A stretch of DNA of 64,000 nt from Escherichia coli (lineage in GTDB: Bacteria; Pseudomonadota; Gammaproteobacteria; Enterobacterales; Enterobacteriaceae), in assembly GCF_022846255.1 (NCBI RefSeq), contig NZ_AP025682.1, one strand, 5' to 3'. Within the stretch, counting starts at the first letter, position 1; every line of letters begins with the position of its first letter. The notes under the pieces were generated by a model. It made no database searches, was not told where the DNA came from, and worked only from the letters and a program-made list of their open reading frames with translations. The translations under genes and the position numbers were made by a program. Positions 24,533 to 30,891 of the stretch are shown here, piece after piece.

Positions 24533-25651
24533 TTATCCCGCCGGGATCATAACCAACAAAACATATCCCACCAGCGCCGCCCACAACAGCATCGGTATCG
24601 AATAAAGATGAAAACGCCACCAGATACGGCGATCGTTCGCCATCCGTAACGCAATCAAATTTGCCAGCGATCCGGGTAATAAACCAAAGCCACCTACGTT
24701 TACCGCCCATGCCAGTAATAAAGACGGTGGCACATAATTGAGCAGCAAAATGGTACTCGGCACGTTACTGATCACCTGCGATAAACCAATCGCCGTTAAC
24801 CATAATCCGGGGTCGGATAAATGACTCACGTTACTTAACACCCCCTGCAAAGCTGGCAGTTGGGTTAGTAAATGGACGTCGATAAACATCGCCATAAACA
24901 CCAGCAGCAGCGTCCAGTCCACACTGAGCACCACGCGACGCGCCAGCAGCGCAAAGCCCGCCGCCACAATCACCAGTCCCCACAGCTCTTGTTTTAACTC
25001 CAGCGCCGTCAGAAAGACGATATACAGCCCCAGACAACTCCACACCAGCCGCGGTTTCCACTCCGGCGTTTGCACCCCCGTATGGTATTGCAGCGCCTTT
25101 CCAGGGAAACAACACCAGCACAACAGCAGGAGTGTCAGCATCATTGCGCCAGCCAGCGGTGCCATTTGGGCAATAAATCCGGCAAACGAAAGACCAGAAC
25201 GTCCCCAGATAAGAATATTTTGCGGGTTGCCAATTGGCGTCAGTAGCGAACCAGCGTTGACTGCCAGCGCCTCAAAAATAATCAGCCGATTAACCGGGAT
25301 CTCACACAGTCTTTTTAGCGTGATAGTCAGCGGAACAACTATAAACAGCGCGACATCGTTGGTCAGAAAGGTAGAAAGCAGCGCTGCCGCCAGTACCATA
25401 AACATCGCCAGCCGACGCTCCGTAGCAAAACGGCGCACCATTTTGCGCCCCAGCACATCAAAATAACCGCTTAACTCGACACCTTTGGTCAGCAGCATCA
25501 GGCCGCTTAAGGTGATGATGGTGTGCCAGTCGATAGCAGCAGGCCAGGATTTCGGTGCAAAGGGAACGAAAAAACTTAATCCGATGCCAACAAGAATTAA
25601 TAACTGAAAAAAACGATCGCCTTGCAGCGTGCGTAAAAAAGGCAGGCTCAT
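24533..25651 (-). CDS. ybiR: putative anion/ion transporter YbiR (372 aa)
   Basis: ORF track; polytopic membrane protein; synteny downstream of mntR. Confidence 0.88.
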
Positions 25652-26115
25652 TTGGCACCGTGTTTCTGGGTAAACAAACGAAAGGCATCCAGCGTCTCTT
25701 CACTAACATGGTGCTCCATACCTTCCGCGTCGCGACGGGCGATTTCCGGACTGACGCCCAACACCAACAAGAAATTTTCGACTATCTGATGTCGCTCGCG
25801 GCTTTCCTGCGCCAGCTTCTCTCCTTCTGCCGTTAAAAACACGCCACGCCAGGGGATCATTTCAATCAGCCCCATGGTTGCCAGTCGCTTAAGCATTTTA
25901 GCCACCGTCGGTTGCGAAACTCCCAAACGAGCAGCCATGTCTACCTGACGAGCTTCCCCCACTTCCCTGATCAAGTCAGAAATCAGCTCAACGTAATCAT
26001 CAATAAGCTCGCGCCGATGCGCCTCTCTGACCTGGCGGAACCCTTCAACGTGCTCTTCCACGTTCACTAACTGCGTCACTTTTTTTGCTGTTGGCGTACC
26101 TGCGCGACGACTCAT
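25648..26115 (-). CDS. mntR: manganese-responsive transcriptional regulator MntR (155 aa)
   Basis: ORF track; DtxR-family HTH; overlaps ybiR start by 4 nt. Confidence 0.92.
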
Positions 26116-26226
26116 TGTGCTTCCTCATTATGGTGACGCATACCTAGCGTTCTCATTTCGTGCGCACATTGTAAACCAGAGTTGCGAAGGTACAAAAAAT
26201 TAACGTTTTAGCAATAGCTATATAAT

Positions 26227-26240
26227 ATAGCCTGTGCTAT
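26227..26240. promoter_or_regulatory. candidate MntR operator (ATAGC-N4-GCTAT palindrome) upstream of mntS
   Basis: atagcctgtgctat palindrome about 60 nt upstream of the mntS ATG in the mntR-mntS divergent region. Confidence 0.5.
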
Positions 26241-26300
26241 ATCTGTATGTAATGCAATCATCCCTCAAGGATCGACGGGATTAGCAAGTCAGGAGGTCTT

Positions 26301-26429
26301 ATGAATGAGTTCAAGAGGTGTATACGCGTGTTTAGTCATTCTCCCTTTAAAGTACGGTTAATGCTGCTCTCTATGTTGTGCGATATGGTCAACAACAAAC
26401 CGCAGCAGGATAAACCTTCCGATAAATAG
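26301..26429 (+). CDS. mntS: small protein MntS (42 aa), manganese homeostasis
   Basis: ATG preceded by AGGAGG; translation MNEFKRCIRVFSHSPFKVRLMLLSMLCDMVNNKPQQDKPSDK; not in the ORF track because it is below the length cut-off. Confidence 0.85.
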   Translation: MNEFKRCIRVFSHSPFKVRLMLLSMLCDMVNNKPQQDKPSDK

Positions 26430-26700
26430 CGGCGTCGCGGTACGCCGCTTCACTCCTGCTTTTATGCAGGCACAACGCGTTTTGGTCTGAAAAACCCCAC
26501 TTTTTGTCGGATTTGCAATCCCCTTCGCAAAAGATTTGTTCGTCGGTAGTTGACCTGAACAGCAGCTCGCTCTATCTTCTTGCAGCCCTGCGTATATTGC
26601 GGCTCGCGGATGCGGACCCCTTTCCCCTCTTCACGCACTCTTGCAGGTATTGACCCTTGACGCCAGGGTAAGCACATGGCGTTTGTTACAATAGTGGCAT

Positions 26701-28284
26701 ATGAATTTAACCCTCAAAGAATCGCTTGTTACCCGTAGCCGGGTATTTAGCCCGTGGACTGCGTTCTACTTTTTACAGTCGCTATTAATTAACCTCGGCT
26801 TAGGTTACCCCTTCAGTTTGCTCTACACCGCTGCGTTTACGGCTATTTTGCTTTTGCTATGGCGAACATTGCCTCGCGTACAAAAAGTTCTGGTCGGTAT
26901 CAGCTCGCTGGTGGCGGCTTGTTATTTCCCTTTTGCTCAGGCCTACGGCGCGCCTAACTTCAATACATTGCTGGCATTGCACTCCACCAATATGGAAGAG
27001 TCGACCGAAATCCTGACGATTTTTCCATGGTACAGCTACCTGGTCGGCATATTTATTTTTGCGCTCGGCGTAATAGCGATCAGGCGAAAAAAAGAGAGTG
27101 AAAAAGCGCGCTGGAATACCTTCGACAGCCTGTGCCTGGTATTCAGTGTGGCGACATTTTTTGTTGCTCCCGTGCAAAACCTGGCCTGGGGCGGCGTATT
27201 TAAACTGAAAGATACTGGCTATCCGGTATTTCGTTTTGCTAAGGATGTCATCGTCAATAATAACGAGGTGATTGAAGAGCAAGAACGGATGGCAAAACTT
27301 TCCGGAATGAAAGATACCTGGACGGTCACTGCCGTTAAGCCGAAGTATCAGACCTATGTGGTGGTGATCGGAGAAAGCGCGCGTCGCGATGCCCTCGGTG
27401 CCTTTGGCGGTCACTGGGACAATACCCCGTTTGCCAGCAGCGTTAACGGTTTGATATTTGCTGACTACATTGCCGCCAGTGGCTCCACGCAGAAATCGCT
27501 TGGCTTAACGCTCAATCGCGTTGTCGATGGCAAACCACAGTTTCAGGATAACTTTGTCACCCTGGCAAATCGCGCGGGCTTCCAGACCTGGTGGTTTTCC
27601 AACCAGGGTCAAATCGGCGAATACGATACCGCCATCGCCAGCATCGCCAAACGAGCAGATGAAGTGTACTTCCTGAAAGAAGGTAATTTTGAAGCAGATA
27701 AAAACACGAAAGACGAAGCGTTACTGGATATGACCGCTCAAGTGCTGGCGCAAGAGCACTCGCAACCGCAGCTGATTGTTCTACATCTGATGGGCTCGCA
27801 TCCGCAGGCCTGCGACCGGACACAAGGCAAATACGAAACCTTTGTGCAATCAAAAGAAACGTCGTGCTATCTCTATACCATGACGCAAACAGACAATTTA
27901 CTGCGCAAGCTGTACGATCAGTTACGCAACAGCGGCAGCAGCTTCTCGCTGGTTTACTTTTCCGACCACGGTCTGGCCTTTAAAGAGCGCGGCAAAGACG
28001 TGCAATACCTTGCCCATGATGATAAGTATCAGCAAAATTTCCAGGTGCCTTTTATGGTCATTTCCAGCGACGATAAAGCGCATCGGGTGATTAAAGCCCG
28101 CCGCTCGGCGAATGACTTCTTAGGCTTTTTCTCGCAGTGGACGGGAATTAAAGCGAAGGAAATAAATATCAAATACCCGTTTATTTCTGAGAAGAAAGCC
28201 GGGCCGATATACATCACCAACTTCCAGTTACAGAAGGTGGATTACAACCATCTCGGAACCGATAATTTCGACCCGAAACCTTAA
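26701..28284 (+). CDS. opgE: phosphoethanolamine transferase OpgE/YbiP (527 aa)
   Basis: ORF track; N-terminal TM helices plus sulfatase-like periplasmic domain. Confidence 0.9.
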   Translation: MNLTLKESLVTRSRVFSPWTAFYFLQSLLINLGLGYPFSLLYTAAFTAILLLLWRTLPRVQKVLVGISSLVAACYFPFAQAYGAPNFNTLLALHSTNMEESTEILTIFPWYSYLVGIFIFALGVIAIRRKKESEKARWNTFDSLCLVFSVATFFVAPVQNLAWGGVFKLKDTGYPVFRFAKDVIVNNNEVIEEQERMAKLSGMKDTWTVTAVKPKYQTYVVVIGESARRDALGAFGGHWDNTPFASSVNGLIFADYIAASGSTQKSLGLTLNRVVDGKPQFQDNFVTLANRAGFQTWWFSNQGQIGEYDTAIASIAKRADEVYFLKEGNFEADKNTKDEALLDMTAQVLAQEHSQPQLIVLHLMGSHPQACDRTQGKYETFVQSKETSCYLYTMTQTDNLLRKLYDQLRNSGSSFSLVYFSDHGLAFKERGKDVQYLAHDDKYQQNFQVPFMVISSDDKAHRVIKARRSANDFLGFFSQWTGIKAKEINIKYPFISEKKAGPIYITNFQLQKVDYNHLGTDNFDPKP

Positions 28285-28848: not shown

Positions 28849-29200
28849 AACCACCTCAAATGTGATTCAAATAAGTCCTAAGTTTTAAATATATCAAAAA
28901 TTAATGGGAAACTCTTCGCGATTTATGATGTCTAACGGGCCATTTCATGTAACAGAACGTTTCCATACACCGCTATCCATCTAAATTTAAATCACTTTTT
29001 CAGAGAACTGCGTAAGTATTACGCATGTTTTCCCTGTCATTCATCCAGATTATTCCTAATCACCAGACTAATGATTCCATCAATCCTGGCGCATTTTAGT
29101 CAAAACGGGGGAAAATTTTTTCAACAAATGCTCAACCAGCATTGGGTATATCCAGTACACTCCACGCTTTACTTAGGTTTAGATATTTGTGGGAGAAAGG

Positions 29201-30213: not shown

Positions 30214-30891
<678 letters not shown>

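Follow-up and report, generated by a model that had tools for sequence, protein, structure and literature searches.

A conserved candidate promoter and leader in front of opgE, adjoining the mntS/rybA unit of Escherichia coli

Results

Two adjoining units between mntR and opgE

Positions 26116-26700 of the window, the 64,000-nucleotide stretch of Escherichia coli DNA that we analysed, correspond to the E. coli mntR | mntS-opgE locus, and all sequence features listed there by the original prediction were found within 1 nt of their predicted places. On the minus strand, divergent from mntS, a 155-aa ORF (25648-26115) encodes the manganese-responsive repressor MntR; its product matches the NCBIfam MntR equivalog NF008273 with 269 bits (cutoff 153), and both K-12 and the closest genome carry it as an annotated gene. 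On the plus strand, mntS (26301-26429) is followed by opgE (ybiP; 26701-28284), identified by its ORF and annotation, whose product is the phosphoethanolamine transferase for periplasmic glucans (PMC3818809). The spacer between the two, put at roughly 270 nt beforehand, measures 271 nt (26430-26700). The order mntR-mntS-opgE is kept in 77 of 80 species loci, where the spacer is 247-300 nt long, and compared with K-12 the locus has about 11 differing sites over 26100-26720 and zero indels. Two further ORFs were rejected as coding: a 71-aa minus-strand ORF (26462-26677), across which other genera carry 13- and 24-nt deletions, and a 16-codon ORF starting at ATG 26610, a codon that Enterobacter lacks. 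As developed below, 26116-26700 probably holds two adjoining but separate units, the mntS/rybA unit and an opgE promoter/leader unit.

The mntS/rybA unit and its MntR-type boxes

The 42-codon ORF at 26301-26429 translates to MNEFKRCIRVFSHSPFKVRLMLLSMLCDMVNNKPQQDKPSDK, carries a RefSeq annotation and matches NCBIfam NF033226 with 96.6 bits (cutoff 36, E = 4e-28). It is identical to K-12 MntS apart from M8I, and I8 is frequent in other genera. A Shine-Dalgarno sequence AGGAGG (26291-26296, plus strand) stands 4 nt before the ATG, with a mean pairing energy to the anti-Shine-Dalgarno sequence of -11.7 kcal/mol over 78 sequences, and the ORF is intact in 77 species loci, in each of which it forms a stand-alone reading frame of about 42 aa divergent from and adjoining mntR. 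The identification of this ORF, with its strong ribosome-binding site, as MntS was thus correct, and its absence from the ORF track is explained by the shortness of the gene alone. The strong Shine-Dalgarno sequence drives synthesis of the 42-aa MntS, a published inhibitor that binds the manganese exporter MntP (preprint 10.1101/2023.06.02.543501).

A -10 hexamer TATAAT for mntS/rybA (26221-26226, plus strand), ending 7 nt before the RybA 5′ end at 26234, is flanked by two MntR-type boxes. Box 1, TTAGCAATAGCTAT (26208-26221, about -26 to -13 of the mntS promoter), has one mismatch to ATAGC-N4-GCTAT and lies within a block (26192-26260) that is 92% identical outside Escherichia. Box 2, ATATAGC-CTGT-GCTATAT (26225-26242, about -9 to +9), has perfect 7-bp arms (26225-26231 and 26236-26242) and is invariant across genera; its ATAGC-N4-GCTAT core (26227-26240) is the palindrome expected about 60 nt upstream of mntS and is centred 67 nt before the ATG. 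Box 2 sits on the mntS/rybA start at 26234, and the MntR-type boxes are placed where they could block RNA polymerase. The exact motif occurs twice in the 64 kb against 0.06 expected, and none of 100 shuffles reached two. The second occurrence (30325-30338) lies in the dps promoter, a published MntR target, 49 nt before the dps ATG. It has the same exact core overlapping the -10 region as the mntS box, but it is a single box where mntS has two, and the flanking bases differ.

The reading of an MntR-type operator therefore held, enlarged by the 7-bp arms and the second, one-mismatch box; repression of mntS by MntR and expression of the MntS protein have already been published (PMC4361602). Both genes, mntS and rybA, carry an annotation in K-12 RefSeq, and with K-12 mntS/RybA (b4705/b4416) of the MntR regulon the present unit shares locus, neighbours, promoter, boxes, Shine-Dalgarno sequence and hairpin, with no difference of substance beyond the two tandem boxes visible where one had been listed. 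The mntS gene and its MntR operator are previously known, and nothing in the mntS part is new; it does show that reading the sequence alone is enough to find a 42-codon gene together with its operator.

The GC hairpin as the probable RybA terminator

RybA, the RNA that contains mntS, spans 26234-26573 on the plus strand when its K-12 annotation (852725-853064) is carried over by the indel-free alignment, and Northern blots have resolved seven RybA species, 205 to about 400 nt long, that have their 5′ end in common (PMC4361602). The whole RNA gave no fold-energy signal (z = -0.6, single sequence). The GC hairpin gcggcg...cgccgc is indeed present, as an 8-bp stem of AGCGGCGU (26428-26435) and ACGCCGCU (26442-26449) closed by the loop CGCGGU, with a folding energy of -13.8 kcal/mol (z = -2.0) and 92% identity across genera. 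The original prediction had assigned it to the opgE leader, a placement that did not survive: the hairpin starts within the mntS stop codon and lies 100 nt upstream of the candidate opgE promoter, and a published Term-seq 3′ end (K-12 852845, which is 26453; PMC7815308 supplement) falls 4 nt past its stem. The hairpin with this 3′ end (26428-26453, plus strand) is most probably the mntS/RybA intrinsic terminator and stands outside the opgE leader.

Among the 10 nt after the stem, 57 of 75 species have at least 6 T, and a TTCATTTTTC tail occurs in other genera. Most Escherichia, including the window, have 4 T there, one strain has 2, and in E. coli the tail, TTCACTCCTG, falls short of the T-run rule of the terminator scan. 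Past it, a second, Escherichia-specific hairpin CCUGC/GCAGG was predicted by folding (26455-26482, plus strand), with a 3′ end placed at 26482 by Term-seq of LB cultures (PMC7815308 supplement), in a stretch (26454-26499) that is only 34% identical across genera. Decay of the U-tail in Escherichia would account for the ladder of RybA read-through products seen in published work, and the long E. coli isoforms most likely arise from this decayed terminator tail, not from a conserved RNA domain.

A candidate sigma70 promoter for opgE

A TTGACC-17-TATCTT element occupies 26550-26578 of the plus strand (candidate -35 at 26550-26555, candidate -10 at 26573-26578), where it was picked out by promoter scan and conservation. 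It lies 1 nt from its predicted position and agrees with consensus at 9 of 12 positions, which makes it a good sigma70 promoter-like site but not the near-consensus one first described. The description of the spacer as promoter-rich was not borne out: this is the sole plus-strand promoter-like site between mntS and opgE, and a scan of 1 kb on both strands gave 3 sites against 1.2 expected. The evidence for the element is its conservation. The -35 reads TTGACC in 69 of 78 sequences, TTGATC in 6 and TTGATA in 3 (97% identity across genera), the -10 reads TATCTT in 75 of 78 (99% identity), and all 78 sequences keep a distance of exactly 17 bp between the two, although the intervening sequence is only 54% identical. 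Upstream, at about -85 to -50 of the promoter (26500-26535, plus strand), stand the conserved blocks TTTTT, TTTGCAA and TCGCAAAA, the A/T blocks among them recurring at intervals of about one helical turn, and 75 of 76 distinct sequences keep the 87 nt of 26496-26582 indel-free. Phylogenetic footprinting therefore strongly backs an independent sigma70-type promoter for opgE, which would start transcription near 26585 and yield a leader of about 116 nt (26585-26700). An independently transcribed leader had been suggested for the whole spacer; the promoter part of that suggestion gained support, but about half of the 270 nt (26430-26573) is not leader, since it consists of the annotated tail of RybA and of DNA upstream in the promoter.

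It could be objected that opgE has no separate promoter, the spacer being the 3′ tail of RybA and opgE being read through from the MntR-controlled mntS promoter, which would tie opgE to manganese status. The RybA annotation does extend to 26573, the Northern species of about 400 nt would end near 26634 (PMC4361602), the tail of the Escherichia terminator is weak, and scanning this stretch for terminators gives none. However, near-invariant hexamers held at a fixed 17-bp distance around a variable spacer have the appearance of a promoter, the U-tail of the mntS hairpin is good in most genera, and the stretch straight after that hairpin is unconserved (34%), and we regard read-through as quite unlikely.

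In the accessible literature we found no experimental opgE start site and no prior description of the opgE promoter or leader, and the Cappable-seq and SMRT-Cappable-seq supplements have no entry at the mntS-opgE locus. The one opgE start found in print is computational, although the enzyme has been identified: RegulonDB gives a predicted start at K-12 852626, equivalent to 26672. In Reg-Seq, the ybiP construct was reported to show no transcription-factor sites, but it is centred on a predicted start and lacks the -35, and two tables in the paper disagree on its coordinate; the result was set aside as evidence for these reasons.

The conserved blocks were compared with the consensus sequences of PurR, CytR, the OmpR/PhoB family, RcsB, the marbox and the CsrA GGA motif, all of which mismatch.

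A conserved predicted leader with two putative interlocking helices

The predicted leader is 77% identical across genera, compared with a baseline of 34%, and 5421 of 5426 E. coli genomes carry exactly one copy of it. It contains a near-invariant core (26653-26687, plus strand) in which alignment pairing defines two helices followed by a U-rich run. Helix S1 joins ACCCU (26653-26657) to AGGGU (26665-26669) and is 97.5% paired, with one covarying pair (A:U to C:G) and 6 sequences unpaired at that position; this single pair may reflect only one or two evolutionary events. Helix S2 joins ACGCC (26660-26664) to GGCGU (26678-26682) and is 98.6% paired, all its changes being one-sided and preserving pairing through wobble; RNAalifold predicts S2 only, with zero compensatory changes. 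The two helices interlock, sharing bases, and are mutually exclusive as simple hairpins. The folding energy of the leader is unremarkable (z = +0.8; 155 of 200 shuffled sequences reach an equal or better energy).

Several other signals were put aside. An all-against-all covariation screen returned many isolated, clade-driven pairs and was distrusted; the helices CCUGC/GCAGG and a GCGG mid-hairpin are unproven, since they are 91-92% paired but show no compensatory changes, and Kluyvera and Klebsiella have lost them by deletion; and seed pairing of RybB with AGUGGC, ahead of the opgE AUG, lacks conservation in Enterobacter. The only distant OpgE relative (56% identity) has a different neighbourhood and no similar leader and gave no help for covariation. 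A search of 25600-27200 against Rfam returned two matches, PinT and sR4 (E = 0.88 and 0.98), far below gathering scores and dismissed as chance-level; for the predicted leader itself (26585-26700) Rfam gave none at E <= 1.

The indel-free run of 26496-26582, the helical-turn spacing of the A/T blocks and the lack of a thermodynamic structure signal in the leader would also suit conserved blocks that act as DNA, that is, as regulator sites upstream of the opgE promoter and overlapping the region transcribed from it. The covarying pair in S1 and the one-sided, wobble-preserving changes in S2 fit a constraint on RNA instead, and conservation extends to the region of the upstream AUG described below; the Reg-Seq construct, with the reservations given above, showed no factor sites. 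We consider it doubtful, with a small chance only, that DNA sites account for the conservation.

S2 followed by the U-rich run recalls a terminator. In nearly all species the helix is succeeded by GUUUU or GUUUGUU, placing a would-be terminator 18 nt before opgE, S1, which excludes S2 by sharing its bases, shows the covarying pair, and the GCACA of the loop is conserved. The core could accordingly be a transcription attenuator or a riboswitch-like ligand sensor in which S2 and the U-run terminate, S1 competes and the mini-ORF is incidental. Yet PMC7815308 lists no Term-seq 3′ end inside the opgE leader, including at about K-12 852613 in three conditions, the S2 hairpin is weak (about -10 kcal/mol, z = -0.6), Rfam has no match, and the published termination here is Rho-dependent, so that an attenuator of this kind is unlikely. 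The same layout of a conserved promoter, a conserved body of about 100 nt and a terminal hairpin with U's also resembles a free-standing sRNA gene in front of opgE. We hold this to be very improbable: Term-seq shows no 3′ end at the S2 hairpin, the U-run is short, the element always adjoins opgE, 23-28 nt from its AUG, and it belongs to no Rfam family.

A putative mini-ORF, an opgE start without Shine-Dalgarno sequence and Rho-dependent termination

The preferred reading, a cis-acting opgE leader, takes in an upstream start codon within the core. It is present in all 78 sequences, as AUG or, in one species, UUG, and opens a putative mini-ORF that in Escherichia runs for 20 codons (26676-26738, plus strand) and overlaps the opgE start. 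In most other genera it has 3-5 codons and lies in frame, 24 nt upstream of the opgE AUG; as exceptions, frame and length are shifted in Escherichia, and the stop is missing, with fusion to opgE, in five species. The mini-ORF is shorter than a coding-constraint test needs. Before it stands an SD-like AGGG(U/G) with a mean pairing energy of -6.2 kcal/mol, a strength of -6 being reached by 7% of background windows. The opgE gene itself has no Shine-Dalgarno sequence: its mean pairing energy is -1.2 kcal/mol (background -1.8), and all 78 sequences fall short of -4.

The leader also contains a C-rich, G-poor tract (26616-26642, plus strand; 52% C, 4% G), a candidate rut site. The bias is conserved, the aligned 26613-26660 averaging 39% C and 18% G over 72 sequences. 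A published peak of Rho-dependent termination at 26738 (K-12 852560; PMC7815308, supplementary file 2) falls 37 nt inside opgE on the plus strand. Coverage downstream of this peak is 85 without and 534 with bicyclomycin, a 6-fold effect (Rho score 6.2, p = 5e-42; PMC7815308). The signal was calculated over 800-nt windows (PMC7815308) and could come from terminated RybA read-through and not from leader transcripts.

Discussion

The explanation that we consider best on the whole, and judge rather probable as a joint account, combines a first unit that is known with a second, opgE unit, deduced from the sequence, and its leader mechanism. A candidate opgE promoter with a leader of about 116 bases is, on comparative grounds, almost unchanged in 77 enterobacterial species, and the leader probably throttles opgE expression. 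From the sequence features, their conservation, the annotation, the published 3′ ends and the published sensitivity to bicyclomycin we infer promoter activity, a start site, translation of the mini-ORF, an RNA fold, the link between them and a signal that would open the fold.

The mechanism would work as follows. Since opgE lacks a Shine-Dalgarno sequence, we propose that its translation relies on ribosomes recruited at the tiny upstream ORF, whose signals would be the SD-like AGGG and the AUG at 26676. S1 would bury the SD-like sequence and S2 the upstream AUG, either as hairpins that alternate or, possibly, as one H-type pseudoknot. The folded core would keep ribosomes off the leader, and Rho could load on the C-rich tract and terminate just inside opgE. 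We advance only tentatively that the opgE leader is an Enterobacteriaceae-wide cis-regulatory RNA in which a pseudoknot-like core hides the Shine-Dalgarno sequence and AUG of the mini-ORF and, with the rut tract, sets Rho termination.

The mgtA/mgtL and corA leaders of Salmonella and E. coli are Rho-dependent leaders under the control of a short leader ORF or of RNA structure. In common with them, the opgE leader is long and conserved and includes a C-rich, G-poor tract and a tiny upstream ORF, and termination at the gene start is sensitive to bicyclomycin; unlike them, it comes with no identified signal, and its ORF has 3-5 codons and lies 24 nt before a start devoid of a Shine-Dalgarno sequence. 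To judge from this arrangement, the opgE mini-ORF looks more like a device for translational coupling than for codon-sensing. Riboswitches of the preQ1-II and SAM-II type are SD-sequestering H-type pseudoknots, and the opgE core likewise has two interlocking 5-bp helices, in which an SD-like sequence and a start codon would be hidden. Its loop lengths of 2, 0 and 8 nt are compatible with an H-type knot, which in opgE is a geometric possibility. The core differs from these riboswitches in having no Rfam match, no ligand and a single covarying pair.

The opgE leader offers an explanation for a Rho-termination signal that has gone unremarked in published data, and the defined promoter and leader give precise bases for mutation. 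The arrangement suggests that a gene for a membrane enzyme, devoid of a Shine-Dalgarno sequence of its own, may be driven through a tiny upstream ORF, which could matter modestly. If the proposal is true, some envelope or osmotic signal would control the phosphoethanolamine decoration of periplasmic glucans via the opgE leader.

Conservation of the mntS-opgE locus

The gene order around the finding is ldtB-ybiR-mntR on the minus strand, then mntS-opgE on the plus strand, followed by ompX and rhtA. Among complete E. coli genomes, 5421 of 5426 match the 585-nt interval at 95-99.5% identity. Since the alignment of K-12 MG1655 to 26100-26720 contains about 11 substitutions and no indels, K-12 coordinates could be transferred exactly (window position = 26301 + (852997 - K-12 position)). 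We fetched 80 loci with MntR, one genome per species; the order mntR/mntS-opgE was kept in 77, with an mntS-opgE spacer of 247-300 nt across about 25 genera. In the other three, L013 (Citrobacter sp. R56), L042 and L074, mntS and opgE were absent from the available stretch. In L042 and L074, mntR lies no more than about 150 nt from the locus edge (a contig end in L074) and the stretch stops before the upstream region; L013, from a complete genome, may have mntR in another context or carry a paralogue.

MntS, RybA and the MntR boxes

The 42-codon ORF named as mntS in the original prediction was found at 26301-26429, with AGGAGG (26291-96) 4 nt before its ATG and a pairing energy to the anti-Shine-Dalgarno (anti-SD) that averages -11.7 kcal/mol over 78 sequences. 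Its protein matches the NCBIfam MntS equivalog (96.6 bits, cutoff 36), and the divergent neighbour gene matches the MntR equivalog. K-12 RefSeq annotates the enclosing RNA as rybA (b4416, 852725..853064, window 26234-26573, plus strand), with mntS as b4705. The ORF in RybA is conserved and expressed, and is repressed by MntR:Mn (summarised in Martin et al. 2015, PMC4361602); on Northern blots RybA appears as seven species, 205 to about 400 nt long, all with the same 5' end (PMC4361602). MntS binds the exporter MntP and inhibits it; its ancestor was a SitA signal peptide with an existing link to MntR (preprint 10.1101/2023.06.02.543501). Residue 8 of MntS (26323) is isoleucine here and methionine in K-12, a change that is probably neutral because both residues are widespread in other genera. 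Another very short gene that the ORF track would overlook is the 21-codon yliM, between ompX and rhtA (K-12 850332..850397, window about 28901-28966, minus strand), at whose position the closest genome carries an annotated 66-nt hypothetical protein.

The predicted ATAGC-N4-GCTAT palindrome is present at 26227-40 and exceeds its description, having 7-bp arms. A second MntR-type box with one mismatch lies at 26208-21, 19 bp upstream of the exact box, and the two flank a perfect TATAAT (26221-26). The annotated RybA 5' end (26234) is 8 nt past TATAAT and falls within the exact box, so that the boxes cover about -26 to +9, the geometry of a repressor that would exclude RNA polymerase. In non-Escherichia genera the block at 26192-26260 shows 92% identity. 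A promoter-like ATTACA-18-TATATT (26253-26224, minus strand) is aimed at mntR from within this invariant block and overlaps both boxes; mntR may therefore be divergently transcribed and autoregulated via the same two boxes. In Leclercia adecarboxylata (L038:1-450) the mntR-mntS spacer is 432 nt vs the usual 185 or so, owing to an insertion of about 250 nt with internal repeats (GGCCTCGCC...GCCAGCGCAA) directly upstream of the MntR boxes, where the upstream box is replaced.

Two exact copies of ATAGC-N4-GCTAT lie in the 64-kb window, where chance predicts 0.06; none of the shuffles contained two. The other exact box (ATAGCTGGTGCTAT, 30325-30338) stands 49 nt upstream of the start codon of dps (30387) and shares bases with the GCTATACTT -10 region. 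As dps is a published MntR target, the exact pattern selects two known MntR targets only, mntS and dps.

A hairpin at the end of mntS

The GC hairpin, originally placed in the opgE leader, does exist (8-bp stem 26428-35/26442-49, -13.8 kcal/mol), but it belongs to mntS: the stem begins in the mntS stop codon, and a K-12 Term-seq 3' end in minimal medium maps to 852845 (26453), 4 nt beyond the stem (Adams et al. 2021, PMC7815308, supplementary file 1). A further 3' end in LB, at 852816 (26482), follows a second hairpin (PMC7815308, supplementary file 1). At least six T occur among the 10 nt past the stem in 57 of the 75 species with the hairpin (typical tail TTCATTTTTC); in most Escherichia sequences, the window among them, it is TTCACTCCTG. 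On the simplest reading, mntS ends in an intrinsic terminator of the classical type with a U-tail that decayed in Escherichia, which would explain the read-through ladder on Northern blots. The sequence just past it (26454-99), with 34% identity, is the least conserved part of the locus, so the long tails of RybA bear little resemblance to a conserved RNA domain.

The hairpin (26428-26449) is conserved in loop and stem alike: its GCGGCG and CGCCGC cores enclose the 8 nt TCGCGGTA in 56 of 75 species, a degree of conservation beyond the needs of a simple terminator. The annotated RybA 3' end (26573, K-12 852725) coincides with the first base of TATCTT, the conserved -10 hexamer proposed for opgE. 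It is not preceded by a terminator-like structure, and a roadblock by promoter-bound polymerase at 26573 is conceivable.

Wherever its features could be tested, this first unit belongs with the MntS/RybA and MntR-operator families. We are nearly certain of the mntS, MntR and terminator account, and this half of the locus is biology already known.

A conserved candidate promoter for opgE

The spacer before opgE had been called promoter-rich, which was overstated, as TTGACC-17-TATCTT (26550-78, 9 of 12 consensus positions) is its sole plus-strand promoter-like site. Conservation across the spacer is blocky. The -35 reads TTGACC in 69 of 78 sequences, TTGATC in six and TTGATA in three, and the -10 reads TATCTT in 75; their spacing is 17 bp in all 78, yet the sequence between them is only 54% identical. 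Hexamers that hold a constant distance while the sequence between them drifts are the pattern classically left by a working promoter. The 87 nt of 26496-26582 lack indels in 75 of 76 distinct sequences, and conserved A/T blocks (TTTTT, TTTGCAA and TCGCAAAA) stand at about -85 to -50 of the candidate promoter, for which no matching regulator was found. Conservation lends good support to the original guess that opgE has a promoter of its own, and such a promoter very probably operates. None of the start-site tables within reach covers the locus, and the sole recorded start of opgE (ybiP) is a computational prediction at 852626 (26672; Reg-Seq, PMC7567609). The Reg-Seq ybiP result was set aside: the construct would start at 26557, without the -35, and two of the study's own tables disagree on coordinates (PMC7567609).

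A predicted opgE leader

The promoter guess leads to a conserved leader of about 116 nt, bounded by a start predicted near 26585 and by the opgE ATG (26701); it is 77% identical across genera and single-copy in E. coli. It has no Rfam match and is not in any curated RNA family, and no published description of it was found in the literature within reach. The only other OpgE representative clustered at 50% identity (56% identical) has a different neighbourhood and no similar leader; the OpgE orthologue group is narrow, and for lack of such a leader in this distant member the element appears confined to the Enterobacteriaceae arrangement.

A tract of 52% C and 4% G (26616-42), whose bias is conserved, precedes a near-invariant core (26653-87) with two potential plus-strand helices: S1 (ACCCU 26653-57/AGGGU 26665-69), 97.5% paired in 72 distinct sequences, and S2 (ACGCC 26660-64/GGCGU 26678-82), 98.6% paired in the same number and followed by a U-rich run. 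One S1 pair covaries (A:U 51, C:G 13, G:U 1, U:G 1, unpaired 6), which may reflect one or two events; substitutions in S2 affect one strand of the helix at a time and leave it paired (A to G in 19 sequences, C to U in five). RNAalifold predicted S2 alone, with zero compensatory changes, and the leader's folding energy is ordinary (z = +0.8). The two helices interlock and, on thin support, might form either hairpins that exclude one another or a pseudoknot of the H type, whose loops would be 2, 0 and 8 nt long.

Within the core (26676), 77 of 78 sequences have an AUG and the remaining one has UUG. In most genera this AUG lies in frame with the opgE AUG, exactly 24 nt before it, and opens a mini-ORF that stops after 3-5 codons (MAFL, MAFS, MASF); the stop is missing in five species, and in Escherichia an extra base lengthens the ORF to 20 codons, carrying it across the opgE start to 26738. 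Before the core AUG, pairing to the 16S anti-SD averages -6.2 kcal/mol (-6 is attained in 7% of random windows). Before the opgE AUG it averages -1.2 against a background of -1.8 kcal/mol; being no better than background and weaker than -4 in all 78 sequences, it leaves opgE without a Shine-Dalgarno sequence across the family. If formed, S1 would sequester the SD-like sequence of the mini-ORF, and S2 its AUG.

Rho termination and a possible mechanism

In K-12, a Rho termination region peaks at 852560 (26738), 37 nt inside opgE (Adams et al., PMC7815308). Bicyclomycin raised downstream coverage from 85 to 534, with upstream coverage at 281 vs 285, for a Rho score of 6.2 (p = 5e-42; PMC7815308); the region is not discussed in the text of that paper. 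The 20-codon ORF of Escherichia ends exactly at this peak, an agreement that is possibly coincidental because the Rho analysis used 800-nt windows.

One tentative scheme would have the leader hold opgE expression low. With the core folded, ribosome entry would be blocked, and Rho would load on the C-rich tract and terminate transcription early within opgE. With the core open, on some putative signal, the mini-ORF would be translated, and its ribosomes could move to the SD-less opgE start, protecting the RNA from Rho. We regard this combination of translation and Rho as plausible, though somewhat less likely than not. Sequence features, their conservation, the annotation and the published RNA ends are observations; promoter activity, start site, fold, mini-ORF translation and any signal are inferred. 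If the scheme holds, the opgE unit would work like leaders of the mgtA and corA type, in which a short ORF or an RNA fold controls Rho-dependent termination; its likeness to SD-sequestering pseudoknots is one of geometry only.

All the sequence items listed in the original prediction are present; one hairpin was misassigned, and most of the remainder rediscovers annotated, published biology. The overall significance of the finding is modest.
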